Virus record (IMG/VR): IMGVR_UViG_3300033069_001366
Span: 47,108 to 111,107 of that record
Length of the DNA stretch: 64,000 nucleotides
Source of the DNA: a virus
Taxonomy: Duplodnaviria > Heunggongvirae > Uroviricota > Caudoviricetes
Reading direction: 5' to 3' (one strand)
In this document: positions 9,201 through 47,293 of the stretch, in pieces
Layout of the letters: each line of letters starts with the position of its first letter
How positions within the stretch are numbered: the stretch's first letter is position 1
The notes under the pieces: model-generated
Told to the model about the DNA's origin: nothing
Seen by the model: only the letters and a program-made list of their open reading frames with translations
The model's database searches: none
Position numbers and translations under genes: made by a program

Positions 9201-12200
9201 TTAAATTTTATTTCAATATTTCCATCACTATTAAAGTGTATATTGGCATATTTTGAATAAGCAAATGTTCTAAGAAAACTAAAGAATTCAAGATATTCAT
9301 CAGAGTTTTCAAATAGTTTATTTCCTTTATATTCATCTTCTAAACGGAGAACTCCTTTATCACTTAAAACTTGAATTGCTCCATATAATCTAGTATCGCT
9401 AGTAATTTTTTCACCATTATCAAATACCATCTCTCTTAGAGATGTTCCTTGAAGTGGGATGTATAATTTAGAAGGTATATCATATATATAAGGTCTACCA
9501 ATCTTAATTCTTTGTGTTAAAGAACCATCATTATTTGGACCCGAATCCCATGAACCTCTTACATAATCTACAGTATATCCATCTATTTTTACATCAAAGT
9601 CCTGTTCTGTAATATCATTATCATCAACCATTTGTTGAACAGTTCTCATGTTCTCCCACTTAGCTCCACCAGAGGCAAAGCTATTATCTTCTAGATTTGA
9701 TGTAAGAAGTCTTCCTGCAAGTATATACCCAACTGTTCCTAAAATAGGAACTTTATTATGTAAGGCTTCATAAAGAAGTGTCTGAGGATCTTTATCAGAT
9801 TTAAATCCTGATTTAATAGAACCTGGCTTTTTTGTAATTTTACTACTTCTAGATATGTTTAAATTAGCTTTTGTAAATAATTCAAACTCAAATCTAAAAC
9901 CATGTATCGTACCCTCTTCTTTTTCTACAATATCACCTTTATCATTAAAATAAAGATAATTACCTTGTTCATCAGCAAGAAAAGCAACTATTTCAGGGAT
10001 AGTAGTAAACTTAGTTTCCAGACTAAATTTCTTATTTTCATCTGTAAGAAGTTCGAATTTAAGTTTTATAGGTTGTGGATTTTCAGCTATTTTTTCTAAA
10101 ATATAATGCTGTTTTCTTGCTAGTTTATCAGATTCAGTAGTAAGACCACCACCTTCTGCTAACTCTTGAGGGTTTACAGTAACAGTTGCTATTTCCCCTT
10201 GCTGTCTTGATAAATCAACAAAGTGACTGATTATATTTTCTTCGCTATCTTTTTGAGGGAACTCAAAGAAATCCTTATCTCCATCAGAAGGAGGTATATT
10301 TATTGAGTCATTATCTCCTACTTCAGGAGTATCCTCTAAAGGTTCTGCTTTTTTAAATTCTTCAATTTTACCATCTTTTGCAATATCCTCTGGAGATTTT
10401 CCTGCAGGAGGGATATTATTTATAAACCTTTGGAACTCGTCCTTTACTATTTTAGGGACATCTTCGTTTTTAATTGGATTTATTTGCTCATTTTCATCTT
10501 CAATCCAGAAAAGGTCTGGTTCATCCTTAAAGACTGCATATGTTTGATTGTTATACTTTATATCATAACTATCTCCTACGTCTTCAATTTTTACTTCTGG
10601 TTTAGATTCAGGAGCTTTTTCTTTAGTTCCATAAATATCTTTATAAGCCTGACTATTCTTTTCTCCCTCAGAAGGTTCAGGTAATAAATCTTCATTAAAT
10701 ATAGTAGAAATAGCCTTTCTTACAACTGCAGGGTTGGCAAGTTTTGGATATTCTTTTTGTAGATACCCTCTTACAAATCCTTTATCCATATTTCCTACAG
10801 CTTGTTCTAATTGGTCAGCAGTATCTTTATCATTTGAATCTAAAGCATTAATAAATGTCTTTAATGTATTTTCATCAGGGTTTATCTCAGGGGTTTCTTC
10901 TTTAGTAGGTTCTTCTTGAGTCTGAGGTTGTTCTTCAGCAGTTTGTAATTTCTCTTCTGCTTTTTTTAAATCTTCTTCAGCTTGTTCTTCTTTCTCTTTA
11001 CTTTTAGCAAATTCTTTTGCAAGAGGAACTAAGAAGTTTGCAATTTGATCATTAAATCTAATGTATTTAGTATTACCTGTAGCTAAAAAATTATTCAGAT
11101 CTAAATTATCCTGATAATTCTTTTGATATTTTAGATAATCAATTAAATCATCTCTTTTAGACCTATTAAAATCTTCAACTCTCCTTGATAAAGGAGCTGT
11201 ATTTTCCCAAGAACCTTGGGTTTTTATAGAAGCTTCTACATAACCTTGAATTTCATCTGCAAGTTCTTCAATAGGATATTGCTTTTTTTCAACTAGTGTT
11301 TTTATATTATCTAATCTACTAAGTGCCTCTTCAATATAATTTTTTCTATCTTCATTAGTTTCTATTTGTAATCTCTTAGTTAAATTATCTATTAAAGGTT
11401 TAGTGTTACCTAAAAAGAAAATATCCTCTAAGAATGAATAATCTGCCTTAGAGTTTAAGTCATAAGGATCAGATGATAAAGATTTATCATTTAATTTAGA
11501 TAAAATCTTCTTAGCTTCTTTAGCTGCATTTAACATGTTTGCTTGAGAAAAAACAGAAGCTTTATGCATTTCTGTTAATCCAATCATAGCTATCTGATGA
11601 AGATTAAATTCTCCATATATTTCCTGTAGCTCATTAAATATAGCAGGATCTAAATTATCTACATCTACCTCACCTTTATCATTTTTAGGAAGAGTTAGAA
11701 GAAAACTATCATACTTATCTTTTGCGTTACTATATGCAGTAGCTGCTACTTCAAAGTCAGATTGAATAAGCTTCTTTTGATTCTCGAATATTTTCTCGAA
11801 TTCTTTGCTGTTTTCTTGTAAATTTGAAGAAAAGTTCTTAATAGAAGACATTAATTGTTCCTGAGACTCAGGAGTTAAATATTCCTCTTTATCAATTTGC
11901 AGGGTATTAGCAAGTGTTTCAAAATCCATACTTGCTAAATTTTTCATCTTCTCAATCTGTAAATCTATTTTACCTGTTTGTAATCCATTATATAGGAATC
12001 TTAAAAGTTGAATATTTTGAGCATTTTTTAAATTAAAAATGTCATTTTTATCAATAAATTTACCAGCAACATATTGAGTTCTTCTATCTTTTATAAAATC
12101 TAAAAACCCATCTGTTTTAAATATATCTGCTATACCTTGAGCATTTAGAAATGCTGCAGTTTTCTTAAGATTTGCTATGTATCTTTCCTTTTGGATTTTA

Positions 12201-34378: not shown

Positions 34379-35208
34379 TTATATTTAAACTTTTTAATAG
34401 GTGAGTAACTTTGTAATTCATTATAAACTAGTTCTAAAAGATTTACATCCTGTTTACAATAATCTATCATTTTTTTCATAGATACTTTACAATTCTTTAG
34501 TACAATATTTTTCCATAAATCTGGTTCAGTTTTAATTTTTTCACCAAGACCTAGGAATTGTCCCATATAATCAAGTTTATTTGAATTAAATTTAAAACCT
34601 GCTCTTGCCATTTTTAAAGTATCTATAGAGTTAAACTTTGGAGAGAGTTCAATTCTATGATATAAACATCTAGTTCTCAACCATTTAATATCAAAAGAAT
34701 CTCCATTTTGAGTAACTGTTTCATCTGCAGAATCTATGATTTTAGCAAATTTTACTAACATTTCATAATCATCTCCATCTTTCCATTGTAAAGATTCTAC
34801 TTTATCAGAATCTGACCATTTCCAACAAATACATATGACCGCCCTTTCTTGTATAATATTTTCATGTGAAAGTTTTATATCTGAACCAATTCTCCAAGAA
34901 GTTACAATATTTGGACTAACCTCTATGTCAAAGAATAGTTTTCTTTTAGGTCTTTCTCTTTCTTTATGTATTAAATTGTAGGTTTCTAATAAGGCAAGAT
35001 CTGATGTAGAATGAATAATTTTATCAGCTTCTCTAAGCTCAGATTGAACACTTTTTACAAGTTCTAGTTCTTTTTGTGCTTCTTTTATAGTTTTAGCAGT
35101 AGTTTTTGGAAGACTTTTCCAAATTGCCTCTAATGTAACATGTGGAGATTTTTTAAGATACCCCTTACGAACCAAAATAAATTTTTCTATTTCCTTTTTA
35201 CTTATCAT
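34363..35208 (-). CDS. DEDDy-type 3'-5' exonuclease (DnaQ/RNase D-like).
   Basis: Exo I LFFDIEVS, Exo II TQNGDSFDIKWL and Exo III YCKQDVNLL motifs are present in the canonical order. Confidence 0.65.
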   Translation of the reverse strand: MISKKEIEKFILVRKGYLKKSPHVTLEAIWKSLPKTTAKTIKEAQKELELVKSVQSELREADKIIHSTSDLALLETYNLIHKERERPKRKLFFDIEVSPNIVTSWRIGSDIKLSHENIIQERAVICICWKWSDSDKVESLQWKDGDDYEMLVKFAKIIDSADETVTQNGDSFDIKWLRTRCLYHRIELSPKFNSIDTLKMARAGFKFNSNKLDYMGQFLGLGEKIKTEPDLWKNIVLKNCKVSMKKMIDYCKQDVNLLELVYNELQSYSPIKKFKYKIPLK

Positions 35209-35830
35209 ATAATTTTTTTATTATTTTCCAATCAAATCCTTTATAAGACTTTCTCTTGCCCTGTATATAATTTCTAGCAGCAGAAGGATAATAACCATTC
35301 TTCTTGGCTTCTTCAAAACTCCAGGTATTTAAAATTTTACCAGTACTTTTACATATTTGTTGAATAAGTTTTTTATTTTTTTCAGATCTTTTAGAGATCA
35401 TAGATTGAGGCTGTTTTTTATTTTTCCAATAGCAATTTCTTTTTAATGAATATGATATTTTCTCTTTATGATCTTCAGAAAATTTTTTACCTTTATTTGA
35501 AATATTTGGAACTGGTAATTCTAATGGAATAGCCATATTATAACCTTTATCTTTTAAATGCGAAGAGTATAATTTAATAAAGAAATTTTCTAATATTACT
35601 GTATGTTCTTCTTTACATATTGCCAATATTTCAAATGTAAAGAAATTCTCGCCATATTTATTAAATGACAACTGAAGATGTGTATTGAAATGAATATTAT
35701 TTTTTAATTTTAAAAAATGGGACCTTTTTCTACTATATAATGTTTTTGTAGTACTACCGATATATACCTTATTATTTTTTAAGTTTGTAATTTTATAAAC
35801 TCCACATCTTTTTAAATCTGAATCTATCAT
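35198..35830 (-). CDS. GIY-YIG homing endonuclease (210 aa).
   Basis: N-terminal GVYKITNLKNNKVYIGSTTKTLYSRKRSHF is the GIY-(10-11)-YIG...R...H signature. The C-terminus is basic, as expected for a DNA-binding region. Confidence 0.7.
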   Translation of the reverse strand: MIDSDLKRCGVYKITNLKNNKVYIGSTTKTLYSRKRSHFLKLKNNIHFNTHLQLSFNKYGENFFTFEILAICKEEHTVILENFFIKLYSSHLKDKGYNMAIPLELPVPNISNKGKKFSEDHKEKISYSLKRNCYWKNKKQPQSMISKRSEKNKKLIQQICKSTGKILNTWSFEEAKKNGYYPSAARNYIQGKRKSYKGFDWKIIKKLYDK

Positions 35831-35929
35831 AATACAAAATTATGAAAAAGTATTCATATAAAAAAATAATTTTTTACATTAATTATTGAAGTAAACAATA
35901 TTTAATCATTAGATGATAAAAAGAAAAAG

Positions 35930-36002
35930 TGGGATAGGGAGTACTCGAAACTCACGAGCCTACGTTTTACAGACGTTGCTAAGTGCCCTGCTTTCTATCC
36001 CA
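35930..36002 (-). tRNA. tRNA, probable Tyr(GUA), class-I-like with imperfect stems.
   Basis: Acceptor GGGATAG/CTATCCC. Anticodon arm ACGT-CTGTAAA-ACGT. T-loop TTCGAGT. Confidence 0.45.
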
Positions 36003-36011
36003 TTGATTATG

Positions 36012-36096
36012 AGGAGAGTACAAGATTCGAACTCTTGCGACTTTTACATCTTCTGTTTAGCAAACAGAACAGTTTACCAATTCCTGCAACTCTCCA
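36012..36096 (-). tRNA. tRNA-Ser(GCU), class II.
   Basis: Acceptor GGAGAGT/ACTCTCC. Anticodon arm TCTGT-TTGCTAA-ACAGA. Long variable arm. T-loop GTTCGAA. Confidence 0.65.
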
Positions 36097-36100
36097 TTTG

Positions 36101-36187
36101 AGGCAAGGGTGGGATTCGAACCCACGGGACTTTTACATCACACAGGCTTTCAAAGCGAGGCTCTTATGACCACTTGAGCACCTTACC
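36101..36187 (-). tRNA. Class-II tRNA, probably Ser(UGA).
   Basis: Acceptor GGTAAGG/CCTTGCC. T-arm GTGGG-TTCGAAT-CCCAC. Anticodon loop TTTGAAA, but the anticodon stem has two mismatches. Confidence 0.5.
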
Positions 36188-36191
36188 ATTG

Positions 36192-36265
36192 TAGTCTAGG
36201 TGAGATTCGAACTCACAAACATAAAATTTTAAGTTTTATAGCTTTCCCAGTTAGCTTACTAGACC
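36192..36265 (-). tRNA. tRNA with anticodon UAA (Leu-type) but class-I architecture.
   Basis: Acceptor GGTCTAG/CTAGACT with discriminator A. D-arm AGCT-AACTGGGAA-AGCT. Anticodon arm TAAAA-CTTAAAA-TTTTA. Variable loop of 5 nt. T-arm GTGAG-TTCGAAT-CTCAC. Confidence 0.6.
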
Positions 36266-36270
36266 ATTTG

Positions 36271-36356
36271 TAGGGATGGAGAGATTCAAACTCTCACGCC
36301 AGTTTATTAACACTAGATCCTAAGTCTAGGGTGTCTATCAATTCCACCACATCCCC
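36271..36356 (-). tRNA. tRNA-Leu(UAG), class II.
   Basis: Acceptor GGGGATG/CATCCCT. Anticodon arm CTAGA-CTTAGGA-TCTAG. Long variable arm. T-loop TTTGAAT. Confidence 0.65.
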
Positions 36357-36361
36357 AAAAA

Positions 36362-36390
36362 GAAAAACCCCACCAAAATTGGCAGGGTTT
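36362..36390 (-). terminator. Terminator-like hairpin with a U-tract on the minus strand.
   Basis: In minus sense: CCCTGCC-AATTTTGG-TGGGG followed by TTTTTCT. Confidence 0.35.
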
Positions 36391-36489
36391 TATTGTAAAC
36401 AATATAATTATTTTTAAACAATATAATCCCTGCTCTTACTTTGTAAGAGATACGATAAGGAACTATATAGTTTGTTATTTTTCATGATG

Positions 36490-36521
36490 CAAATATAGTA
36501 TAATAATTTACAAAAACCAAA
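36490..36521 (-). promoter_or_regulatory. Candidate Bacteroidetes-type promoter upstream of tRNA cluster 1 (-33 TTTG and -7 TAnnTTTG).
   Basis: Minus sense reads TTTG, then 20 nt, then TATATTTG, directly downstream of the tailspike stop codon. Confidence 0.25.
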
Positions 36522-36527
36522 TTTATT

Positions 36528-38327
36528 TTAAACATCTATTAAAAATCCCTGATTATTATAACTTATAGTCTGAGAGTATTTTATATTTCCATAACTATCT
36601 ACTACTTTAATTCTAAAAGTATTAATGGTTAAACTTAATTTGATATCCCTACAGTTAGATGCTGTAGTACTATAACCACCAGGAATAGTGTAAATAGTTG
36701 TAAATACATTATTTGTCATTCTTTCAATATATTTTACTACAGGTACATTTGTATTTATATTCCAACAAATATTTGAAACTCTTCTTCTTGGTAATGTTCC
36801 TGATAAAGAAATAGTTCCTTGAATAGGTTCATTTATAGTTGTAGTCGTAGTTGTACTAGAACTTGTAGTTGTAGTTGTTGAACTAGTGGTAGTTGTACTA
36901 CTTGTTGATGTTGTTGATGTACTTGAAGTAGTAGTTGTTGTAGTAGGAACTAAAGTTGTAGTTGTAGTTGTACTTGTACTTGAAGTAGAAGTTGTACTTG
37001 TACTACTTGTACTTGAAGTAGAACTTGTAGTAGTTGTTGTACCAGCAACATATTCTAAAATACCTATTTCAGGAGGATTACTAACAGCAACACCTGCAAA
37101 ATCTACAGAGTACCCCACATTTGTTCCTGCATTTATTAATACACTGCCAACTAAAGGAGAGAAGTTCCAATCTTTTGCATTTCCTGAAGTTGAGGTCCAA
37201 AAGTTAGCACTTGTTACAATCTCACTAGGGTTTGCTGTAATATTTAATAATGAACCTGTTCCTGATGTATTTAATTTGTATACATTATTTTCATGAATAA
37301 GAGTAGTATTATTCCACTGTGCTCTATAGACATCTACAGTACCATATAATTGAAATATATTATTCTTTACAGTTAAAGTAGCTGCTGTAGTAGGAGTGCT
37401 CTTATATCCTATCATTGCATTACTTGATACTCTAAATGGTTGAGTTTCGACAATAACATTATTAAGTATACTTGTATTAATTACATTTGTAGCAAAAGTG
37501 CCTGAATTACTCACATACATAAAAGACCCATTATTTGTACATTTATTGTATGCTAATACAGTTCCGGTTACAGTACGTCCACCTGAACCACCAATTTCAA
37601 TAACACCATTGCAATCATTAAAACTATTGTATGCTATAAGGTTATTACTACAATCTACATCAGCGTAAATATCTACTGCTCCACCATCATATTCATAATC
37701 ATATGAATCTGCCCAACACCCTTCAAATATATTATTTGTAATAATATTATTAGAAGAAGATATAATTACACCATTAGCACCATAGTCATCATCATTTCCG
37801 GGAGGCGGACCATCTTTGGTGTTTTTAATCATCCTCATATTCTGTACTGTAGAATATGTAAAAGTTGTATTATCACCAGTAGTATACAACGCACAACCAG
37901 TTCTATCAAAATTACATCTTGTAATAGTAATATTAGTAGATGAATCTGGAACAATAGCTCTTTGAATTTTTGCCTGTATTGTTCTATCTACTGCAGATAT
38001 AGACTCATCTACTATAGTCCAGTCTTGCAGTGTAATATATGATCTATTATACATAGATATAAGAACATTAATAGATGCACCTGTACCTAATAATTTAGGT
38101 TGTGCCCCTGTTCCATATGCACCAAAAATAATTCTTGCTGATGAATTACCAGATCTTGTTATATTTAGAGTTCCTGAATAACTCTGTCCTCTTTTTAATA
38201 AGACTTGGTCTCCAGGTTGAAGTAAACTCATATTTGAATTTACATTTGATAGAGACTTCCAAGGTGTATTTATACCACCATTAGATGTTGAACCAGTGTA
38301 ACTGGAATCTACGTAATATATTGCCAT
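36528..38327 (-). CDS. Tailspike or receptor-binding protein (599 aa) with a right-handed beta-helix (pectate-lyase-like), a Ser/Thr linker and a C-terminal domain.
   Basis: Repeated NNxIxNN and CxNNG turns (NNIITNNIFEGC, SNNLIAYNSFNDCNG, YNKCTNNGSF). A 70-aa S/T-only linker is followed by a roughly 100-aa C-terminal domain. Confidence 0.65.
   Translation of the reverse strand: MAIYYVDSSYTGSTSNGGINTPWKSLSNVNSNMSLLQPGDQVLLKRGQSYSGTLNITRSGNSSARIIFGAYGTGAQPKLLGTGASINVLISMYNRSYITLQDWTIVDESISAVDRTIQAKIQRAIVPDSSTNITITRCNFDRTGCALYTTGDNTTFTYSTVQNMRMIKNTKDGPPPGNDDDYGANGVIISSSNNIITNNIFEGCWADSYDYEYDGGAVDIYADVDCSNNLIAYNSFNDCNGVIEIGGSGGRTVTGTVLAYNKCTNNGSFMYVSNSGTFATNVINTSILNNVIVETQPFRVSSNAMIGYKSTPTTAATLTVKNNIFQLYGTVDVYRAQWNNTTLIHENNVYKLNTSGTGSLLNITANPSEIVTSANFWTSTSGNAKDWNFSPLVGSVLINAGTNVGYSVDFAGVAVSNPPEIGILEYVAGTTTTTSSTSSTSSTSTTSTSSTSTTTTTTLVPTTTTTTSSTSTTSTSSTTTTSSTTTTTSSSTTTTTTINEPIQGTISLSGTLPRRRVSNICWNINTNVPVVKYIERMTNNVFTTIYTIPGGYSTTASNCRDIKLSLTINTFRIKVVDSYGNIKYSQTISYNNQGFLIDV
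36838..37040 (-). repeat. Low-complexity tandem codon repeats encoding the Ser/Thr linker of the tailspike.
   Basis: Plus-strand gtagttgta/acttgtagt-type units are repeated many times. Confidence 0.7.
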
Positions 38328-38892
38328 TTTTATACTTTTATTATAATATACTAAATATTTCTGATATTACCAAACACACCTCCGTTTATCCCTGCAAGTA
38401 GGGTTTCTATCTTCAAGCATTTAGATAGACTCATCTAACCTAAAACTCCCGTGTCCCTGTGCCTCATCTTTTCACCATGTAGGCTGTTGATTATGAGGAC
38501 TTTATATTTTCACGGAGGAATGTATTTTAGCCTACTTGGTTTTTTCTTGCAGGTACAAGTTGTCACGGATAGACATTGCTTGATATTTATACATCCTATC
38601 GTATGAATTAGTTACTTTCATACTAGTTTTAATAGATAACTTTTATTGTGCTAAAGGATAAAAGTTGGAAAAAACCTTTTGGCAAAAATAAGGGATATTA
38701 GTCAAAATAAAAAATCCTTCTATTTCTAGAAGGACTTTCTATTCCGTGACAATGATGCCTATAAAAACCAAGGCAAAAATACAACTTTTCTTTTTTCTTC
38801 CAAAATTTATTTTGTGGAGATGAAGATAATCGAAATCTTCTCAAATAGTTTGCAAAACTACTTCGCCAGCCTTGGAACATGCACCCCCTTAG

Positions 38893-38965
38893 TTGACTTG
38901 GTGAGTAACGATCTCACTACCTTTACATTATCAGTGTAACGCTCTACCATTTGAGCTACAAGTCA
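38893..38965 (-). tRNA. tRNA-Ile(GAU).
   Basis: Acceptor TGACTTG/CAAGTCA. D-arm GCTC-AAATGGTA-GAGC. Anticodon arm TTACA-CTGATAA-TGTAA. T-arm GTGAG-ATCGTTA-CTCAC. Confidence 0.65.
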
Positions 38966-39501
38966 TTATTAATTATTTGAAAATGTATCTCTGCATGACA
39001 ATTTTTACACACTAAAATACATTTATCTAATTCAGACTTTAAGTTTTGAAAACTTTTAGTTCCACCACTTATAGTATAATCTTTTTTATTAGGATCAATA
39101 TGATGAAATTCTAAAGCAGCAAGACATTTATTATATCCACATTTACAACATTTCCCTCCTTTATATTCTACACATTGTTCTTTTACTTTTAACCTATAGC
39201 CTTTTTTTCTTTTGTCAGCTTTTTGTTTAATTTGAAGTTTTGTAAGTTTTCTTGCTTTTAATTTTTTACCTAATAATTGTCTTGATACTTTAAATTTATC
39301 AGCAACACCTTTAAAAGATAATCCTTGATCATAAGCATCCTGATATATTTTTAATAATTCAGGTGTATATTTATCAACTTTGTTAATAAATTTTGAACAA
39401 TGATAACTTACTGTTGATTTAGAGCATCTTAACTGTTTAGATATTTCAGCAGAACTAAATCCTTTATGAAAAAGTTCCAAAATTTTTGTCTTTTTAACCA
39501 T
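38956..39501 (-). CDS. HTH-HNH homing endonuclease (181 aa).
   Basis: N-terminal HTH-like segment (SSAEISKQLRCSKSTVSYH). C-terminal EFHHIDPNKKD...LVCKNCHAEIH HNH motif with Cys pairs. Confidence 0.65.
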   Translation of the reverse strand: MVKKTKILELFHKGFSSAEISKQLRCSKSTVSYHCSKFINKVDKYTPELLKIYQDAYDQGLSFKGVADKFKVSRQLLGKKLKARKLTKLQIKQKADKRKKGYRLKVKEQCVEYKGGKCCKCGYNKCLAALEFHHIDPNKKDYTISGGTKSFQNLKSELDKCILVCKNCHAEIHFQIINNDL

Positions 39502-39561
39502 TATTGTATACTTTATATATACAATATAAGATAAAAGTTCGAATTTATCAAATTTATTTTG

Positions 39562-39638
39562 TACTGATGATTAGATTCGAACTAATGTGTAACCAACTAC
39601 CTTTTCAACTGGATATAAGCCAGAGAGGATACATCAGC
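39562..39638 (-). tRNA. tRNA-like element, non-canonical and a possible pseudo-tRNA; identity unresolved.
   Basis: Acceptor GCTGATG/CATCAGT and a good T-arm ATTAG-TTCGAAT-CTAAT. The body has only one clean stem-loop (CTGG-CTTATAT-CCAG) and no standard D-arm. Confidence 0.3.
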
Positions 39639-39641
39639 ATG

Positions 39642-39716
39642 TCGCCTATCACGGATTCGAACCGAGGATCTTTCCTTAGACAGAGGAACAGGGACGACCA
39701 ACTCCCCTAATAGGCG
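39642..39716 (-). tRNA. tRNA-Asp(GUC).
   Basis: Anticodon arm TTCCT-CTGTCTA-AGGAA. D-arm GGGG/CCCT. T-loop TTCGAAT with one U-U pair in the T-stem. Confidence 0.6.
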
Positions 39717-39720
39717 TTAG

Positions 39721-39794
39721 TACCATGTATGGGATTCGAACCCATGAATAACACCGTGAAAGAGTGTTGACCTAGACCGCTAGTCAAACATGGC
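39721..39794 (-). tRNA. tRNA-Glu(UUC).
   Basis: Acceptor GCCATGT/ACATGGT. Anticodon arm ACACT-CTTTCAC-GGTGT. T-arm ATGGG-TTCGAAT-CCCAT. Confidence 0.65.
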
Positions 39795-39797
39795 ATG

Positions 39798-39871
39798 TGC
39801 AGTAGACAAGACTCGAACTTGCAAACCTCCGACTTGGAAGGACGGCATTCTACCAATTGAACTACTACTGC
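39798..39871 (-). tRNA. tRNA-Gly(UCC).
   Basis: Acceptor GCAGTAG/CTACTGC. Anticodon loop CTTCCAA, with one U-U in the stem. T-arm GCAAG-TTCGAGT-CTTGT. Confidence 0.55.
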
Positions 39872-39994
39872 AGGTTTAGGTTTTTGTACGCCCGATAGAA
39901 CCTATTAACTATGTGTACTTTACGATTACACTCTTCATTTGAGCTTGAATCAGAGGCTTAAGAGGGACTACGACACTGTGTACATCAGTAACAC

Positions 39995-40459
39995 TTATTT
40001 ATATACAGAAGGGTGTCTTATGACGTGATCTGCAGCCTTACATGCTATCATTTCTCCAGTTTTAAAAGTTGAGTTTGCATAACCTTTAAACGCAGAAACT
40101 AATTTAGAACTTATAGTTTTCTTTGCATCTGCAAAATCAAATTCCAAAGCTTTAACAGCAATAGGGATATCTTGAGTCAAAGTATCATGTATTTCAAGAG
40201 TTCTTAATCCTTCTCCATATAATCTTGTAAATTGACTAAAATCTTTTATTCTTGATACAACTTCTTTTAAGTAAATAAAATGAGCACCTCTTCTTCCATA
40301 TCTATAAGCTATACAAGTTACATAAACGGTATCTTGTCCCCAGTCTTGACTATCTGTTCCGATAGATATTTCTAGATGATTGAATTTTTCAATCTGATCT
40401 AGCGTATGTTCGATGATATTTACTATTTTACCATCTTGTGTCCGAAAATATTTTTCCAT
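39995..40459 (-). CDS. Hypothetical protein (154 aa) embedded in the tRNA array.
   Basis: ORF with no motif I can assign; a segment LEISIGTDSQDWG is noted. Confidence 0.45.
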   Translation of the reverse strand: MEKYFRTQDGKIVNIIEHTLDQIEKFNHLEISIGTDSQDWGQDTVYVTCIAYRYGRRGAHFIYLKEVVSRIKDFSQFTRLYGEGLRTLEIHDTLTQDIPIAVKALEFDFADAKKTISSKLVSAFKGYANSTFKTGEMIACKAADHVIRHPSVYK

Positions 40460-40483
40460 ATTGCAAAGATAGTAATTTTTCTG

Positions 40484-40555
40484 TTGCGAGGGGGAGATTC
40501 GAACTCCCGACTAAAAGGGTATGAGCCTTTTCTGCTACCGCTGCATTACCTCACA
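40484..40555 (-). tRNA. tRNA with CAU anticodon (Met or Ile2).
   Basis: Anticodon arm AAAGG-CTCATAC-CCTTT. T-arm GGGAG-TTCGAAT-CTCCC. Acceptor TGTGAGG/CCTCGCA. Confidence 0.6.
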
Positions 40556-40560
40556 TTATG

Positions 40561-40634
40561 AGGGAAGTAAGGGTGACGATCCCTTCACCTAATGATTAAC
40601 AGTCATTTGCTCTACCAACATGAGCTAACTTCCC
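40561..40634 (-). tRNA. tRNA-Asn(GUU).
   Basis: Acceptor GGGAAGT/ACTTCCC. Anticodon arm AATGA-CTGTTAA-TCATT. Atypical T-loop ATCGTCA. Confidence 0.6.
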
Positions 40635-40676
40635 ACATCTCCTTTTTTAACTCCACGGGGAAAGGTAACCCACCTG

Positions 40677-40750
40677 TATCCTTGGTAAGAATCGAACTTA
40701 CAACTTTTTGCTTAGAAGGCAAATACTCTATCCGTTGAGTTACAAGGACT
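40677..40750 (-). tRNA. tRNA-Arg(UCU).
   Basis: Anticodon arm TTTGC-CTTCTAA-GCAAA. D-arm ACTC/GAGT. T-arm GTAAG-TTCGATT-CTTAC. Confidence 0.65.
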
Positions 40751-40754
40751 TGTG

Positions 40755-40828
40755 TAGAGGATAGGAATTCCGAGATCCTGACTTCTTGTTTGTAATACAA
40801 GCACTCTGCCAACTGAGTTAATCCTCTA
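40755..40828 (-). tRNA. tRNA-Val(UAC).
   Basis: Acceptor AGAGGAT/ATCCTCT. Anticodon arm CTTGT-ATTACAA-ACAAG. T-arm imperfect. Confidence 0.55.
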
Positions 40829-40832
40829 TATG

Positions 40833-40906
40833 TCTCCCCTGAGGGACTCGAACCCACGACTCGTAAATTAAAAGTTTACTACTCTAGCCAACTGAGTTAA
40901 GAGGAG
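40833..40906 (-). tRNA. tRNA-Lys(UUU).
   Basis: Anticodon arm GTAAA-CTTTTAA-TTTAC. D-arm ACTC-AGTTGGCTA-GAGT. T-arm GTGGG-TTCGAGT-CCCTC with one U-U. Confidence 0.65.
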
Positions 40907-40938
40907 AAATAAAAAAGCCCTTCTTTTTGGGAAGGGCT
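40907..40938 (-). terminator. Hairpin with a U-tract (on the minus strand) abutting the 5' end of tRNA-Lys; a terminator or processing signal.
   Basis: agcccttc-tttttgg-gaagggct. On the minus strand it is followed by TTTTTTATTT. Confidence 0.4.
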
Positions 40939-41110
40939 TGTGTATTTTATTTTCTTAACTCTCACTTACAGAAAGACAACACAAACCCTATTGAGTTTCT
41001 ATCCTCAATATTACCTTTCACCATCGCTATGATATTTAAAGATTGCATTTGTGAATGTCTATAACTTTTAATTAGTGCAAATATACAATGTATTTTTTAA
41101 AAATCCAAAT

Positions 41111-41323
41111 TTATTTTTTTGTTCTAAAAAAATATTTTCCGTTTTCTGCTTTTTCTATTTTCTTATGAACTTTTCTTAGTATTCTAGGGACCTTTTTGCC
41201 TATATATACTCTTCTAGTCCCAAGAGTTATTTGTTCTAATGACTCTTGAAACATTATATAACCACCAACTCCAGTATAAAGTGTGATATTTCTCATACTA
41301 CAAAGATATATATTTTTGACCAC
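41111..41323 (-). CDS. Small hypothetical protein (70 aa) with a Lys-rich C-terminus.
   Basis: ORF between tRNA clusters; weak support. Confidence 0.3.
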   Translation of the reverse strand: MVKNIYLCSMRNITLYTGVGGYIMFQESLEQITLGTRRVYIGKKVPRILRKVHKKIEKAENGKYFFRTKK

Positions 41324-41389
41324 TTTATCTGATTCGAACAGATAATTTTTGATCCGTAGTCAAAGGTTATTTCCAGTTTAACTAAAAGT
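41317..41389 (-). tRNA. tRNA-Arg(ACG).
   Basis: Acceptor CCACTTT/AAAGTGG. Anticodon arm TTTGA-CTACGGA-TCAAA. T-arm ATCTG-TTCGAAT-CAGAT. Confidence 0.65.
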
Positions 41390-41396
41390 GGTTTAC

Positions 41397-41469
41397 AGGG
41401 TGATTAAAGGGACTCGAACCCTCACATAATACAGCCACAATGTACCGCTCTACCATTAAGCTATAACCA
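41397..41469 (-). tRNA. tRNA-His(GUG) with an encoded G-1 and C73.
   Basis: Anticodon arm GTACA-TTGTGGC-TGTAT. Extra 5' G pairs with discriminator C. D-arm GCTT-AATGGTA-GAGC. Confidence 0.7.
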
Positions 41470-41471
41470 CC

Positions 41472-41544
41472 AGATCCAATACTAGGGTTCGAACCTAGAA
41501 TCTACTGAATCAAAGTCAGTCGGGTTACCAATTACCCCATATTG
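41472..41544 (-). tRNA. tRNA-Gln(UUG).
   Basis: U1-A72 acceptor pair TCCAATA/TATTGGA. Anticodon arm ACTGA-CTTTGAT-TCAGT. T-arm CTAGG-TTCGAAC-CCTAG. Confidence 0.65.
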
Positions 41545-41567
41545 GAATTTTTCTTCATCCAGTATCC

Positions 41568-41638
41568 TGCACCTCGTACCCTAATCGAAAAGGTTCCAAG
41601 AGGTTTGGAAGCTCTTGTGCTACCATTACACCAACGAG
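41568..41638 (-). tRNA. tRNA-Trp(CCA).
   Basis: Acceptor ACCTCGT/ACGAGGT. Anticodon loop TTCCAAA, with a C-C at the 31-39 pair. T-arm ACCTT-TTCGATT-AGGGT. Confidence 0.55.
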
Positions 41639-41643
41639 GTATC

Positions 41644-41717
41644 TGTGGTAACTCTCAGGTTCGAACTGAGTTAGTCTGTTCTTCAAACAGATGCATTGAC
41701 CAACAATTGCTTAGTTA
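41644..41717 (-). tRNA. tRNA-Phe(GAA).
   Basis: Acceptor GGTAACT/AGTTACC with A73. Anticodon arm TCTGT-TTGAAGA-ACAGA. T-arm CTCAG-TTCGAAC-CTGAG. Confidence 0.7.
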
Positions 41718-41723
41718 CCTTTT

Positions 41724-41797
41724 AGATCCTCCTGAGTTACTCGAAAACTCTCTATTTCTGCTTACAAGGCAGACGCAGCACCATATCTGCATAGGAG
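41724..41797 (-). tRNA. tRNA-Thr(UGU).
   Basis: D-arm GCAG-ATATGGTG-CTGC. Anticodon arm TCTGC-CTTGTAA-GCAGA. T-arm GAGTT-TTCGAGT-AACTC. G1-A72 mismatch. Confidence 0.6.
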
Positions 41798-41803
41798 GCA
41801 TTT

Positions 41804-41879
41804 AGAGTCCATAGTTGGATTTGAACCAACGGTTTTACAATTTTGCAGATTGTTGCTTTTGACCTCTCAGCCATATGGA
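41804..41879 (-). tRNA. tRNA-Cys(GCA).
   Basis: Acceptor GTCCATA/TATGGAC with U73. Anticodon arm ACAAT-CTGCAAA-ATTGT. T-arm GTTGG-TTCAAAT-CCAAC. Confidence 0.65.
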
Positions 41880-41883
41880 CCTA

Positions 41884-42022
41884 TGTGGCAATGAATGGAT
41901 TCGAACCATCTATTTTATAACTTAGTCGCTTAAATTATTCAATCTTTTGTGTCAGGTAGACAGAGGACGATTCTGCATGATGTCCACATCCCAAATGTGG
42001 CGGCTTACCAATTAGCCCACTA
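41884..42022 (-). tRNA. Interrupted tRNA-Pro(UGG)-like gene. The 5' half (acceptor, D-arm, anticodon arm) and the 3' half (T-arm, acceptor) are separated by an insertion of about 70 nt; it may be a pseudogene or an intron-containing tRNA.
   Basis: 3' half: GATGG-TTCGAAT-CCATT plus CATTGCC. 5' half: GGTAGTG (which pairs with CATTGCC through two G-U wobbles), D-arm GGCT-AATTGGTA-AGCC, and a perfect anticodon arm CCACA-TTTGGGA-TGTGG. Confidence 0.3.
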
Positions 42023-42498
42023 CCTGTTTTATGCTTTATTGTATGACAATTACAACAAAGTAGTTGTAAGTTATCAAGATTATTATTTTTTCTATTTCTA
42101 TCTTTATGATGAACTTCTAAAGCTAAAGGGTTATCAAAATTACATTCCTCACATTTTAATTCCTTCATTGATTTTATCTTTATCCATCTATAACTACCTA
42201 TACCAGTTTTATATTGAGGATGATTTTCCCATTTTTTAAAAAGAGTATTGTTTTTTATAGTCGAACACTTTTTACTACAATATAAATTTCCTGTTTTAGA
42301 CCTTTTAATTCTACTAGGAGTAACTATCAAATCTTTACCACAATTTGCACATTTATAATTATATTCTTTTGCTTTTCCTATATGCTTACATTCATTTGAA
42401 CAATAAATTTTCCAATCTTTTTTGATACTAAAATTTATATATTTCTCTTCCTTTTCAAATTTAGATTTACAAACAGGACATATTAAACTTACTTTCAT
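41935..42498 (-). CDS. Zn-finger HNH homing endonuclease (187 aa) whose 3' end overlaps the 5' half of the interrupted tRNA-Pro-like gene.
   Basis: Motif EVHHKDRNRKNNNLDNLQLLCCNCH, which is the HNH signature. Multiple CxxC pairs. Confidence 0.65.
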   Translation of the reverse strand: MKVSLICPVCKSKFEKEEKYINFSIKKDWKIYCSNECKHIGKAKEYNYKCANCGKDLIVTPSRIKRSKTGNLYCSKKCSTIKNNTLFKKWENHPQYKTGIGSYRWIKIKSMKELKCEECNFDNPLALEVHHKDRNRKNNNLDNLQLLCCNCHTIKHKTGSGLIGKPPHLGCGHHAESSSVYLTQKIE

Positions 42499-42587
42499 AC
42501 TACTAATATAGTAAAAAGTTTTCGAACTTCCAAATTTATTTTTATCCCAAAGCTAGTGGGAAAAACCTGACTTCCCTACATCGCCAT

Positions 42588-42616
42588 AAAATAAAAAACC
42601 CTCATGTTATTGAGGG
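42588..42616 (-). terminator. Bidirectional rho-independent terminator-like hairpin.
   Basis: ccctca-tgttat-tgaggg, flanked by an A-run on plus (a T-run on minus) and TTTGTGTAT. Confidence 0.45.
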
Positions 42617-42731
42617 TTTGTGTATGAATCGGAAAAAATAAAAGCTTACTTTTTAATACATATACATAGACCCTCGCAGATGCCAAATGGACACTGGGTT
42701 GTGGGTTGCCATGTATGTGTAAAGTTATTTT

Positions 42732-42965
42732 TCATAAAATTAAGTCTTTGATCTTATCAAAATTTTTACCTATAAAAAATCCTAAAAGGATTCCAAATAT
42801 AAACCACATATTTTTATTTTTTAGGTTTGGGTTTAGGTTTTCCACAGCCACAAGCCATAGTAATCTGTTTTGGAATACAAATATACGAAATGTTTTTATA
42901 TTTTCCAAATTTATTTTAAAAAAAGACCCTTGAGAACAAGGGTCAAAACTTTTTACAGAAACCAA
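42732..42965 (-). CDS. Possible small membrane protein; probably only the C-terminal transmembrane peptide MWFIFGILLGFFIGKNFDKIKDLIL is real.
   Basis: ORF with a hydrophobic C-terminal helix; weak support. Confidence 0.25.
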   Translation of the reverse strand: MVSVKSFDPCSQGSFFKINLENIKTFRIFVFQNRLLWLVAVENLNPNLKNKNMWFIFGILLGFFIGKNFDKIKDLIL

Positions 42966-42981
42966 GAAAACTGCAAGTTTA

Positions 42982-43971
42982 TTATATGTTAGGATGAATT
43001 ATTACTCCTTCAAAATTTACTACAATTTGTTTTGATGTAGCATTTATAAAAGCTGATTGGAATTCTAAGATAAGATTTGTTCCATTCTTTCTTACAATAT
43101 AACCATATTGTTGAGTTATTTGATCTCCAGTTCCAGGTTGGTCTATATAGTTAATAGATTTTAGGTCTGCTGTACCAAGAAGTTCCGCTGCAGAAACACC
43201 ACATCCAGTTGCTAAAGCAGTTATTGTAGAAATATTTCCTACAGTAACAGTTCTTTTTCTAGTTCCAGCAAGATCACTATATGCTCCAAAATTTACAGTA
43301 TATGTTGCAGAACCTTTAAATTCTATAGTTCCATCAAATCTTACTCTATATTTAGGAGTACCAGATACATAAACTACATTTGCATTTCCTGTAGCTGTTA
43401 ATGTAACATCTCTCCAAACTCCATCAAAGCACTTTCTTGTTGCTGTAATAGAAGGATTAATTGATACTATAAATGGATCTGTTGCAGGACCTGTACCTGT
43501 TACAGTGACTCCTGTACCACCTTGTACATACATATTTATAGTAGGGGTTGGAGGAATTGCTCTTAATTTTCCATCTGTACCTATTTCAAGATAGTTTCCA
43601 CTATCGGCTGAAATAAGTGAAGCTGGAGCTACATTAAATCTTATTTTTTCATTTAATCCAGGATTCAAGACTGTTTTAGTCATGAAGTTTCCTACTAATA
43701 ATTTGTTATTTAGATAATCTGCAGTATCATCTGATGATGAAACTTTTGCATATATATCTGAACCACTTGGTGGAGTAGGAATATCAAGATTTGCAATAAG
43801 AGTATCAAGAGCTTCTAAAACTTGAAGCCCATTCATATCATTTGTAATACCAAGAGCTGAATGAACACCAGGAAGTGTTATGCACTCAAAAGTAGTTGGG
43901 TTTAAACAACCACAATTATCATAGCTATTTTCAGAACAAGGATTACAAGGTGTATTTTCTAAACAAGACAT
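42982..43971 (-). CDS. Tail-fibre-like protein (329 aa) with a Cys-rich N-terminal module.
   Basis: N-terminus CLENTPCNPCSENSYDNCGCLNPTTFEC. Gly/Thr-rich beta-rich body (VQGGTGVTVTGTGPATDP). Confidence 0.5.
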   Translation of the reverse strand: MSCLENTPCNPCSENSYDNCGCLNPTTFECITLPGVHSALGITNDMNGLQVLEALDTLIANLDIPTPPSGSDIYAKVSSSDDTADYLNNKLLVGNFMTKTVLNPGLNEKIRFNVAPASLISADSGNYLEIGTDGKLRAIPPTPTINMYVQGGTGVTVTGTGPATDPFIVSINPSITATRKCFDGVWRDVTLTATGNANVVYVSGTPKYRVRFDGTIEFKGSATYTVNFGAYSDLAGTRKRTVTVGNISTITALATGCGVSAAELLGTADLKSINYIDQPGTGDQITQQYGYIVRKNGTNLILEFQSAFINATSKQIVVNFEGVIIHPNI

Positions 43972-46761: not shown

Positions 46762-47293
46762 TTGAATATTGTTCTAATAAAGATTTTGCAAAATCATACA
46801 ACTCTTTACCTTTTACTTTATCTAAAGATTCTTCAACTTTCCACTTTGCAGCAAGAGCAAACTCCTCAATATCTCTGAGTTTATCTCTATTAGCAATATA
46901 TTCCTTTTGGGAAAGTTTGCAAGTATTATCTATAAGTTTATCTTTTTCGGTATTAATTTTATTAATTAATTCAACAATTCTAAAATGATAGTAGTGTTGA
47001 ACACTATAAATATTTGGTTTTATAGATTGTTTTATTTCATAAATACCATCTGGTAAGTCCATTAGGTCTTCAGCTTTATTTACCTTTTTATACTGTAAAT
47101 TAGATGCATTTAAGACTAATGAGAAATTCTTACTTACATGAAAAGTATACCAGTTTGTTTTATTTACTGGTAGAACCTCAATTAAGTAATTTTCTACTGT
47201 TTGATTATTATAATAAAAAGAGGTATCAAATAACCTCATAACCTTTGGATTATTACTATTTGAAACCTCTAAAGATAATTCTGTTGTAATCAC
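46745..47293 (-). CDS. Hypothetical protein (182 aa), possibly a fibre-assembly or chaperone protein.
   Basis: ORF immediately downstream of the terminator and upstream of the fibre genes. Confidence 0.4.
   Translation of the reverse strand: MITTELSLEVSNSNNPKVMRLFDTSFYYNNQTVENYLIEVLPVNKTNWYTFHVSKNFSLVLNASNLQYKKVNKAEDLMDLPDGIYEIKQSIKPNIYSVQHYYHFRIVELINKINTEKDKLIDNTCKLSQKEYIANRDKLRDIEEFALAAKWKVEESLDKVKGKELYDFAKSLLEQYSNECKC

Follow-up and report, generated by a model that had tools for sequence, protein, structure and literature searches.

Predicted leader-peptide attenuators whose codons match the downstream tRNA genes in the tRNA island of a divergent crAss-like phage

Why phages carry transfer RNA (tRNA) genes has been asked for more than 50 years; the competing explanations are codon compensation, turnover of host tRNAs and escape from defences that target tRNA. 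The question is raised again by a tRNA island in a 64,000-nucleotide stretch of phage DNA (Caudoviricetes; IMG/VR virus record IMGVR_UViG_3300033069_001366, positions 47,108 to 111,107), the whole of which is referred to as the window: does this array simply supply tRNAs, or is its transcription governed by the tRNAs that it encodes? All positions are given in window coordinates, the genes of the array, like its promoters, leaders, terminators and homing endonuclease genes, lie on the minus strand throughout, the labels from L021 to L048 denote IMG/VR contigs and the leaders are numbered L1 to L3. The preliminary description of the island had recorded four minus-strand clusters; the strand was correct, whereas the genes fall into five groups in three operons. 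It had overlooked how the array is organized, with predicted leader-peptide attenuators before the operons and homing endonucleases that appear to remodel the array.

Each of the three operons was found to consist of a promoter, a leader open reading frame (ORF) of 23–29 codons, an antiterminator/terminator pair and the tRNA genes. The promoters P1 (42878–42914), P2 (41078–41114) and P3 (36490–36526) share the motif ATAAATTTGG, N19–21, TAnnTTTG, which has three matches in the window (0.03 expected), each of them heading a leader. The motif is of the Bacteroidota type, agreeing with the −33 TTTG/−7 TAnnTTTG promoter consensus of Bacteroides and Flavobacterium, and a Bacteroidota host is therefore likely. 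A sigma-70 promoter scan gave no enrichment (36 found, 37.9 expected). The leader ORFs L1 (MKNNFTHTWQPTTQCPFGICEGLCICIKK, 42646–42735), L2 (MQSLNIIAMVKGNIEDRNSIGFVLSFCK, 40962–41048) and L3 (MKNNKLYSSLSYLLQSKSRDYIV, 36414–36485) all start with ATG, have A-rich second and third codons, lie behind the promoter motif and are predicted to be translated. Intrinsic terminators, each a G+C hairpin followed by a T run, stand directly before the remnant of an old tRNA-Pro (T1, 42586–42619), before tRNA-Lys (T2, 40907–40939) and before tRNA-Leu(UAG) (T3, 36357–36391); in operons 2 and 3 the hairpin and T run end 7–8 nucleotides (nt) before the first tRNA, and the T run of T1 abuts the remnant.

The cores of the three leader peptides use only amino acids of the tRNAs encoded downstream. 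L1 is composed of MKNN, the core FTHTWQPTTQCPF (42723–42685) and GICEGLCICIKK, and is followed by tRNAs for Pro, Cys, Thr, Phe, Trp, Gln, His and Arg. L2 is composed of MQSL, the core NIIAMVKGNIEDRN (41036–40995) and SIGFVLSFCK; it is followed by tRNAs for Lys, Val, Arg, Asn and Met, then Gly, Glu, Asp and Ile, then Ile and Ala, and all ten of these amino acids occur in the core. L3 is composed of MKNNK, the core LYSSLSYLL (36470–36444) and QSKSRDYIV, followed by tRNAs for Leu, Leu, Ser, Ser and Tyr. Compared with random peptides drawn from the amino-acid frequencies of the phage, the longest runs of in-set residues were 13 in L1 (P < 5e-6), 14 in L2 (P = 4e-3) and 9 in L3 (P < 5e-6); leaders paired with the wrong operon gave runs of just 1–4. 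The same match to the downstream tRNA set was observed in 22 further leaders from 11 relatives.

In rearranged islands the match co-varies with the content of the operon. In L044 the cluster Leu-Leu-Tyr-Ser-Cys is preceded by the leader core LSLYSLCSYLLY, the cluster Ala-Ile-Arg-Arg-Val-Ile by IIIAIIRIAVR and the cluster Trp-Gly-Asn then Asp-Lys by NNNGKDW, and in L039 the cluster Pro-His-Glu-Thr-Gln is preceded by TPFTQEHQF. The correspondence extends to the codons: the Arg codon is CGY in all four operon-1-type (set-1) leaders that have one, with tRNA-Arg(ACG) downstream, and AGA in the operon-2-type (set-2) leaders that were checked, with tRNA-Arg(UCU) downstream, and where a cluster contains both Arg tRNAs its leader has both Arg codons. 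The leaders likewise include codons from the two Ser boxes and the two Leu boxes, and ATA as well as ATY. Because the order of the residues is scrambled between phages and the composition is kept (as in NIIAMVKGNIEDRN, IIADNGEDRGIVKDG and NMIVDNIGGAREK), selection seems to act on codon content and not on the peptide or RNA sequence.

These observations bear on the simplest explanation, namely that the island is an ordinary constitutive phage tRNA array in which the hairpins end upstream units, the small ORFs are due to chance or encode unrelated micro-proteins and the tRNAs serve A/T-ending codons. Blocks of tRNA genes occur commonly in large phages, crAss-like ones included (10.1101/2020.07.20.212944; PMC12386605), the anticodons mostly begin with U34 or G34, and a cysteine pattern in L1 and internal promoter-like motifs, both described below, are also compatible with it. 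A constitutive array is nevertheless highly improbable: the match between leader and operon lies far beyond chance, is specific to the cognate pairing and follows operon content down to the choice between CGY and AGA, and the antiterminator strands co-vary with the terminators. Since the promoters of operons 2 and 3 are situated upstream of the hairpins, these hairpins lie within 5′ leaders and do not mark the ends of upstream units. The preliminary description had seen the set as suited to decoding A/U-ending codons. This holds in so far as 84% of the codons in the large ORFs of the window end in A or T; however, tRNA-Arg(ACG) is retained although CGN accounts for only 39 of 669 Arg codons (∼6%; AGA, 82%), so that codon-usage matching is not the whole story.

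Evidence for a switch in RNA structure was obtained from complementarity. Candidate antiterminator strands were located at 42676–42669 in L1 (CGAGGGTC), at 40989–40980 in L2 (AGGGTTTGTG, pairing with CACAAGCCCT at 40942–40933) and at 36436–36427 in L3 (AGAGCAGGGA). In alignments of the leaders of relatives, sequence was conserved, and each phage had, further upstream, a segment repeating the 3′ arm of its own terminator. Of 25 leaders, 24 have the antiterminator strand distally in the ORF, 10–40 nt ahead of the end of the stop codon, and over all 25 the complementarity to the 5′ arm of the leader's own terminator had a mean z of −3.1 relative to shuffled sequences; in the window, z was −3.6 for L1 and −4.0 for L3. 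For the Leu-operon leaders, RNAalifold gave a UUCCAG:CUGGGA 1:2 helix that encloses the regulatory codons and the 3′ strand of which is also the antiterminator strand. The ATG of L3 is located 4 nt past the −7 box, as it is in many relatives, and L3-type transcripts may be leaderless. No terminator-like hairpin was found on the minus strand between T2 and tRNA-Ala, in agreement with the presence in L2 of codons for all three tRNA groups of operon 2. The Leu-leader motif was absent from the GTDB species genomes and present in five IMG/VR contigs; when the Leu leader with its tRNA was compared with known phages and genomes it was matched in the tRNA part only, and a tblastn search with the L1-type leader peptide among known phages and genomes returned nothing.

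Several points weigh against control by attenuation. The relatives are not independent samples, and the per-leader P values are not to be multiplied. The antiterminator of L2 was weak in the automated test (z = −0.36), its pairing amounting to 10 base pairs only if read by hand with the 4 nt that precede the terminator stem, and the leaders of four or five relatives also scored weakly. The C-terminal half of L1 contains a conserved CxxC...CxxC pattern, and L1 could be a small zinc-binding protein. Two further small ORFs (42814–42858 and 42732–42809) lie between P1 and L1; one is MACGCGKPKPKPKK, with a GCGCGKPKK-like peptide kept in L035, L036 and L038, and the other encodes a hydrophobic peptide of 25 amino acids. 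The L1 of the window lacks an Arg codon and is separated from its tRNAs by an HNH cassette with a promoter of its own; operon 1 may therefore have escaped attenuator control. Promoter-like sites are also contained within operons 2 and 3.

With these points taken into account, we consider it likely that the tRNA operons are subject to ribosome-mediated transcription attenuation that senses the same aminoacyl-tRNAs as the operons provide. When the matching aminoacyl-tRNAs are plentiful, the ribosome would reach the leader stop codon and mask the antiterminator strand, upon which the terminator would form and the tRNA genes would not be transcribed. When any matching tRNA is scarce, the ribosome would stall on its codon and the antiterminator would form, and RNA polymerase would then read into the operon and supply would be restored. 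The demand of the phage for A/T-ending codons, host shut-off or host defences that cleave tRNA might each cause such scarcity. Since the operon's own tRNAs read the regulatory codons, the circuit would act as a supply sensor with negative feedback. Each leader is probably a codon 'barcode' of the tRNAs of its operon, such that the phage would measure usable aminoacyl-tRNA pools and transcribe its tRNA genes on demand; sensing of tRNA depletion specifically is rated below attenuation as such.

The same attenuator might respond instead to amino-acid starvation or to the translational state of the host, for example as a timer of the infection phase, and not to tRNA depletion. Classical attenuators respond to charged tRNA, which is set by the amino acid and the tRNA together (PMC1183508), and the sequence alone cannot separate the two signals. 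Starvation as the signal is nonetheless unlikely, as more tRNA would give no relief of an amino-acid shortage and as the leaders hold one codon per tRNA species with isoacceptor specificity (CGY versus AGA, ATA versus ATY, TCN versus AGY).

The proposed mechanism was compared with known systems. The leader-peptide attenuators (trpL, hisL, leuL, thrL, ilvL, pheL and the pheST leader) likewise have a short 5′ ORF rich in regulatory codons, mutually exclusive antiterminator and terminator hairpins and an antiterminator strand near the leader stop codon, and in the classical logic a stalled ribosome leads to read-through (PMC1183508). They differ in that they control biosynthetic enzymes or synthetases, whereas tRNAs would be controlled here; in that the present element is found in a phage of a probable Bacteroidota host; and in that its leaders carry a mixed barcode of 3–10 amino acids with about one or two isoacceptor-specific codons per downstream tRNA. 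None of the Rfam leader families reached its gathering score, the sole weak matches in the leaders being Phe_leader (RF01859, 28.2 versus 55 bits) and Thr_leader (RF00506, 20.4 versus 55 bits); the leaders thus stand outside these families and yet appear to work alike. The T-box is also a transcription attenuator that monitors tRNA charging and controls translation-related genes. It binds uncharged tRNA through a specifier codon and the T-box motif, does so without a leader peptide and monitors one tRNA each; the T-box covariance model had no match at E ≤ 10 in 35000–43000, and the leaders are not T-boxes.

The tRNA content was established with two detectors. ARAGORN with default settings predicted 20 tRNA genes in 36011–42026, all on the minus strand. 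The Rfam model RF00005 (gathering cut-off 29 bits) yielded 18 genes at or above the gathering score with standard filters and 22 elements with laxer filters on 35000–43000, the elements gained being Asp, Trp, Val(UAC) (40755–40827) and a borderline element at 39562–39638. The union of both detectors comprises 21 solid tRNA genes, and synteny in relatives adds Tyr and Ala, which were found by relaxed ARAGORN only and rejected by the default detectors, giving 23; synteny with relatives also settled the doubts about Ile(UAU) and Pro. By these calls the island contains 23 functional-looking tRNA genes, one degenerate Ile(UAU) copy and one split Pro pseudogene; the 23 form a minimal set with one tRNA per box for all 20 amino acids. 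If superwobble of U34 is allowed, every sense codon but CGG could be read.

Most of what the preliminary description had reported on the individual genes was borne out. All 22 of its anticodons are correct, and U and G do dominate the wobble position (position 34 in the 23 genes: U 12, G 8, C 2, A 1). The unusual T loops ATCGTCA (Asn) and ATCGTTA [Ile(GAU)], a G1–U72 pair [in Leu(UAA)] and a U–U stem pair [in the anticodon stem of Ser(UGA)] are present in the sequence. It had listed no suppressor anticodon, and neither default nor relaxed ARAGORN found CUA, UCA or UUA in the window; the long ORFs are intact under table 11, and no sign of stop-codon recoding was seen there. Covariance models do not reject most of the listed genes, 20 of the 22 reaching the Rfam gathering score and only Thr and the Tyr-like gene falling below it. 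The claims that did not survive are the absence of an Ala tRNA, which is refuted by tRNA-Ala(UGC) (38888–38815; G3:U70, A73, directly after Ile(GAU)), and with it the count of at least 19 amino acids without Ala, since the set covers all 20.

In operon 1, both detectors found tRNA-Pro(UGG) (41952–42026), tRNA-Cys(GCA) (41806–41880; 63.6 bits in Rfam), tRNA-Phe(GAA) (41646–41719), tRNA-Trp(CCA) (41570–41640; 45.9 bits), tRNA-Gln(UUG) (41474–41546), tRNA-His(GUG) (41399–41471), in which an encoded G-1 faces C73, and tRNA-Arg(ACG) (41319–41391). tRNA-Thr(UGU) (41726–41799), with a G1×A72 mismatch, was detected by ARAGORN and is syntenic in relatives; it obtained no Rfam score even at E ≤ 10 on a 96 nt slice, yet folds into a clean cloverleaf, and the cause of the silence of Rfam is unexplained. 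The same G1×A72 mismatch was seen in the Thr gene of L035 (7250–7322).

Operon 2 begins with tRNA-Lys(UUU) (40833–40906), tRNA-Val(UAC) (40755–40827; 46 bits in Rfam, missed by ARAGORN), tRNA-Arg(UCU) (40677–40749; 70 bits), tRNA-Asn(GUU) (40561–40634; T loop ATCGTCA) and a tRNA with the anticodon CAU (40484–40555). The last of these has U1–A72 and A73, lacks the three G–C pairs of the initiator and is probably an elongator tRNA-Met; L2 contains an internal ATG codon upstream of it. An RNase H-like ORF (39995–40459; PF04308, YkuK/DUF458) follows inside the operon and occupies the same place in the relatives that cover it; a PDB sequence search with this protein returned nothing, and its placement suggests a role in tRNA processing or turnover. 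The island of L038 also holds a gene for a PTH2 peptidyl-tRNA hydrolase. Further on lie tRNA-Gly(UCC) (39798–39871), tRNA-Glu(UUC) (39721–39794), tRNA-Asp(GUC) (39642–39716; 47 bits), the degenerate tRNA-Ile(UAU) (39562–39638), a second HNH homing endonuclease gene (38956–39501; helix-turn-helix plus HNH), tRNA-Ile(GAU) (38893–38965; T loop ATCGTTA) and tRNA-Ala(UGC) (38815–38888). Apart from Val, the degenerate Ile and Ala, the tRNAs of this operon were found by both detectors. Just past tRNA-Ala, 38704–38811 contains a promoter-like motif (AATAAATTTTGG...TATTTTTG) with a hairpin and T run about 40 nt on, without an ATG-initiated leader ORF; this stretch may mark where operon 2 ends, be left over from an attenuator or encode a very short RNA.

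Operon 3 comprises tRNA-Leu(UAG) (36271–36356), which has a long variable arm, tRNA-Leu(UAA) (36192–36265), which has 74 nt, no long variable arm and the G1–U72 pair, tRNA-Ser(UGA) (36101–36187; 39.9 bits, two anticodon-stem mismatches) and tRNA-Ser(GCU) (36012–36095), all called by ARAGORN and Rfam, and ends with a compact tRNA-Tyr(GUA) (35930–36001; D loop CAGGGCA). A GIY-YIG homing endonuclease gene (35198–35830; PF01541) flanks the array. Between operons 2 and 3, a 599-residue ORF (36528–38327) includes a Ser/Thr run of about 90 residues and had no family match.

The two genes rejected by the default detectors were assessed by comparison with relatives. tRNA-Ala, called by relaxed ARAGORN and supported by a hand parse, orthologues and folding, has an acceptor strand GGGGGTG that pairs with CATCTCC followed by A, an anticodon loop TTTGCAA, a perfect T arm and an atypical D region; in L034 the D region is the same and the three other stems show compensatory changes. 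G3:U70 occurs in all ten listed Ala orthologues, and in most relatives Ala stands directly after Ile(GAU). According to the 1988 work of Hou and Schimmel and of McClain and Foss, G3:U70 is reportedly the identity element of tRNA-Ala; G3:U70 and A73 are both found in 38888–38815. The Tyr-like gene of the preliminary description, which fails both default detectors, proved to be a member of a conserved family of compact tRNA-Tyr with nine members. Its features are a 7 base-pair acceptor stem, a one-nucleotide linker, a 3 base-pair D stem in which all three pairs covary, a D loop CAGGGYA, an A–A mismatch above a 4 base-pair anticodon stem, the loop CUGUAAA and no long variable arm. In the nine sequences all pairs of the D, anticodon and T stems covary or are kept, and compensatory changes occur in all four stems; L048 has a classical long-arm Tyr beside the compact one. 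A blastn search with the compact Tyr among known phages and genomes returned nothing.

Other departures from the canonical form were noted in the clade. In relatives L032–L048 the Leu tRNAs (UAA, UAG, CAA) mostly have 74–78 nt and one Tyr family has 71–72 nt; the short Leu and compact Tyr are without the long variable arm that bacterial class II tRNAs carry and that the Ser tRNAs retain. In the T loops ATCGTCA, ATCGTTA and ATCGTCC (Asn, Ile(GAU) and Pro) A54 and U58 represent the usual T54–A58 swapped, and the Val loop CTCGGAA has C54 and G58; an ATCGT-type T loop is also present in Thr of L035 and in Ala of L038 and L043. The idea that ATCGTNN T loops shield HNH-adjacent tRNAs from cleavage is unsupported, as the Pro beside HNH in L041–L043 has a canonical T loop. 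At 39562–39638, six relatives have a good tRNA-Ile(UAU) and two a CAU tRNA. The element of the window (30.6 bits in Rfam) still has its acceptor stem, CUUAUAU loop and T arm; its D arm is gone, an extra 16 nt are present, and it folds no better than shuffled sequence (z = 0.16); its alignment to the orthologues identifies it as a degenerate derivative of tRNA-Ile(UAU). A 96 nt 'Ile(UAU)' predicted by ARAGORN in overlap with Asp is a mis-parse of this 77 nt element, and 'Ala(AGC)' at 42506–42588, predicted by relaxed ARAGORN, consists of the 5′ remnant of the old Pro and a T-arm-like stretch of the HNH promoter and is no gene.

Many of the non-canonical genes (compact Tyr, Ala, short Leu(UAA), Ser(UGA) and Thr with G1×A72) might be decaying pseudogenes in an array eroded by homing endonucleases. 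The rejection of Tyr and Ala by the default detectors and of Thr by Rfam could be taken in this sense, and a truly degenerate Ile(UAU) and a split Pro do occur in the same island. Decay of these genes is very unlikely, however: the odd forms are kept in distant relatives with compensatory stem changes, the Thr mismatch is common to L035, long and compact Tyr are retained together in L048, and the leaders hold codons for the odd-form tRNAs. Standard tRNA finders thus miss conserved non-canonical phage tRNAs such as the compact Tyr and the Ala with the odd D arm.

The interrupted Pro(UGG) gene of the preliminary description turned out to be two things. The tRNA-Pro at 42026–41952 is intact (45.5 bits; T loop ATCGTCC), while a split Pro does exist as a separate gene, with its 5′ part at 42585–42545, beyond the range that had been described, and its 3′ part at 41910–41886. 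Over 27 nt in the D-arm region the 5′ remnant is identical to the Pro genes of L035 and L039; this remnant comprises the acceptor strand, the D arm and the 5′ anticodon stem, reaches through the anticodon loop TTTGGGA and stops after position 38. The 3′ remnant is an orphan T arm with acceptor strand and A73, and its CATTGCC pairs with GGCGATG of the 5′ remnant. The old gene has lost about 10 nt, which made up the 3′ anticodon stem and the variable loop. Between the remnants lie a promoter (AATAAATTTGGAAGTTCGAAAAC..., 42505–42540), a free-standing HNH ORF of 187 residues (41935–42498) and the intact Pro, which travels with the HNH gene. Both HNH proteins (41935–42498 and 38956–39501) matched PF01844/PF13392 and PHROG HNH families. 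Homologues of the first have 160–164 residues and end 4–8 residues past the HxxxH motif; the 24 extra residues of the window protein therefore represent read-through into tRNA-Pro.

A homologous HNH gene is found at the same place in L041, L042 and L043, where it overlaps the start of Pro and where the left end of the cassette, including the promoter, is conserved; HNH is absent from this position in L035–L038 and L045. The window and L043 both retain traces of a Pro that was replaced; the 5′ remnant in L043 derives from a different Pro allele and is cut at the same point. Free-standing HNH and GIY-YIG homing endonucleases thus appear to have entered the island at a later stage. We infer that the free-standing HNH enzyme cleaves Pro genes in the part between anticodon loop and T arm, that its gene enters by copying along with a Pro of its own, and that in the window the cassette, with its own promoter and tRNA-Pro, was inserted into a resident tRNA-Pro just behind attenuator 1. 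As a further case of partial Pro duplication, L040 (Ga0116171_10005102) carries at ∼9340–9450 of the reversed strand a 5′ piece of Pro that contains the same D-arm 24-mer and is directly followed by another tRNA-Pro, which is complete and different. HNH ORFs were also seen to use the conserved U8-A9-G10 of a tRNA (TAG) as their stop codon: the second HNH gene of the window ends at positions 8–10 of tRNA-Ile(GAU) (38956–38965), and the same occurs in L041 (3342–3351); the first HNH gene of the window misses the TAG stop in tRNA-Pro.

The arrangement of an HNH ORF between two halves of one tRNA is reminiscent of an intron-containing gene, in which the ORF would lie in a self-splicing intron and splicing would give a functional tRNA; tRNA genes of bacteria and phages are known to contain group I introns with homing endonucleases (PMC3984707). 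We give almost no credence to this explanation, and the split Pro was rejected as an intron. No group I or group II model matched at E ≤ 10 (Rfam, 35000–43000), the flanks do not restore the tRNA because ∼10 nt are missing, the insert has its own promoter and a complete second tRNA-Pro, and the same cassette occurs without flanking remnants in L041 and L042 and with only a 5′ remnant in L043.

A single tRNA gene has also been exchanged at tRNA-Gly. Strains L023, L025, L028 and L029, which are 99% identical to the window, differ from it almost only in tRNA-Gly(UCC), at 15 of 74 positions; the differences are compensatory and the flanks are identical, one gene having been replaced by another allele. 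Homing endonucleases would thus swap individual tRNA genes between near-identical strains. The closest precedent is SegB of T4/T6, one of the free-standing endonucleases encoded inside a phage tRNA cluster: it recognizes the sequence of tRNA genes and causes neighbouring tRNA genes to be inherited together with it (PMC2330249), and segB is widely associated with tRNA genes (PMC13096335). Here, comparably, the HNH gene always abuts tRNA-Pro and remnants of the replaced Pro flank the cassette. In contrast to SegB, the enzymes here are HNH proteins and one GIY-YIG protein at the edge, not SegB homologues, their cleavage is predicted only, and their ORFs run into the tRNA and borrow U8-A9-G10 as a stop.

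The window has ∼30% G+C and all of its large ORFs are on one strand. An ORF of 4528 residues (218–13804) is followed by ORFs of 898, 556, 1954, 878 and 1534 residues, all on the minus strand, a pattern typical of the virion and RNA-polymerase modules of crAss-like phages. PHROG families were matched by the portal and by the large terminase subunit, which shows ∼25% identity with its counterparts in Flavobacterium and Bacteroides crAss-like phages, and CrAss_Ring_1/2 Pfam domains are present in neighbouring genes. By these signature genes the phage is classed as a divergent, Crassvirales-like phage, the host of which is probably a member of the Bacteroidota. It was also found on a 122 kb contig and in several other samples. 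A blastn search of the whole region against deposited phages revealed no close relative, the matches being part of an HNH gene and single tRNAs.

Relatives were collected from IMG/VR. One search with the RNase H-like protein returned nothing; homologues of the RNase H-like and HNH ORFs led to a dozen contigs with the same island. Twenty loci were obtained with the polymerase exonuclease subunit; of these, the ten longest were scanned and had no tRNAs. The closest syntenic contig, L021 (∼55% amino-acid identity), lacks tRNAs at the corresponding position, which places the island in a variable region. Syntenic arrays were identified in at least 15 related contigs, with a shared order of Pro, Thr/Cys, Phe, Trp, Gln, His, Arg(ACG) in the first group, Lys, Val, Arg(UCU), Asn, CAU and then the RNase H-like gene in the second, Gly, Glu, Asp, Ile(UAU), Ile(GAU), Ala(UGC) in the third and Leu, Leu, Ser, Ser, Tyr in the fourth. 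L038 carries at 8028–8099 a tRNA with a CUA anticodon (an amber suppressor, 61.5 bits) beside an HNH gene; the phage of the window has none.

Large tRNA blocks, often with homing endonucleases nearby, are described for the beta and zeta groups of crAss-like phages, an example being Lera with 26 tRNAs, in the tRNA-related passages of 10.1101/2020.07.20.212944 and PMC12386605, which contain no mention of attenuator leaders. The present phage differs in having neither suppressor tRNA nor recoding in the window and is only distantly related to the described groups. A second parallel is offered by defence: phage tRNAs replace host tRNAs cut by defence nucleases, T5 tRNA-Tyr countering retron-Eco7/Septu and T5 tRNA-Lys countering PARIS, variants of the anticodon loop counter anticodon nucleases, and Septu/PtuAB cut the variable arm of tRNA-Tyr (PMC11555353, PMC13096335, PMC10264068, PMC11464382). 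The compact Tyr and short Leu of the island are without this arm and may be nuclease-resistant replacements; a link between the island and tRNA-cleaving defence is proposed by this analogy as a hypothesis. In the literature that was searched, which left most subscription journals uncovered, neither attenuation as a control of tRNA genes nor a mixed barcode leader was found described. The array by itself is of a kind already known, and attenuation of tRNA genes is apparently an undescribed variant of the classical mechanism.

If the proposed attenuation is correct, the phage would actively monitor tRNA supply, with a feedback that suits it to offset a loss of host tRNAs, including loss to tRNA-cleaving defences. 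The three leaders would then be small portable parts that report the depletion of defined subsets of tRNAs, and textbook attenuation would be extended to tRNA targets, to multi-amino-acid leaders and to the phages of Bacteroidota.

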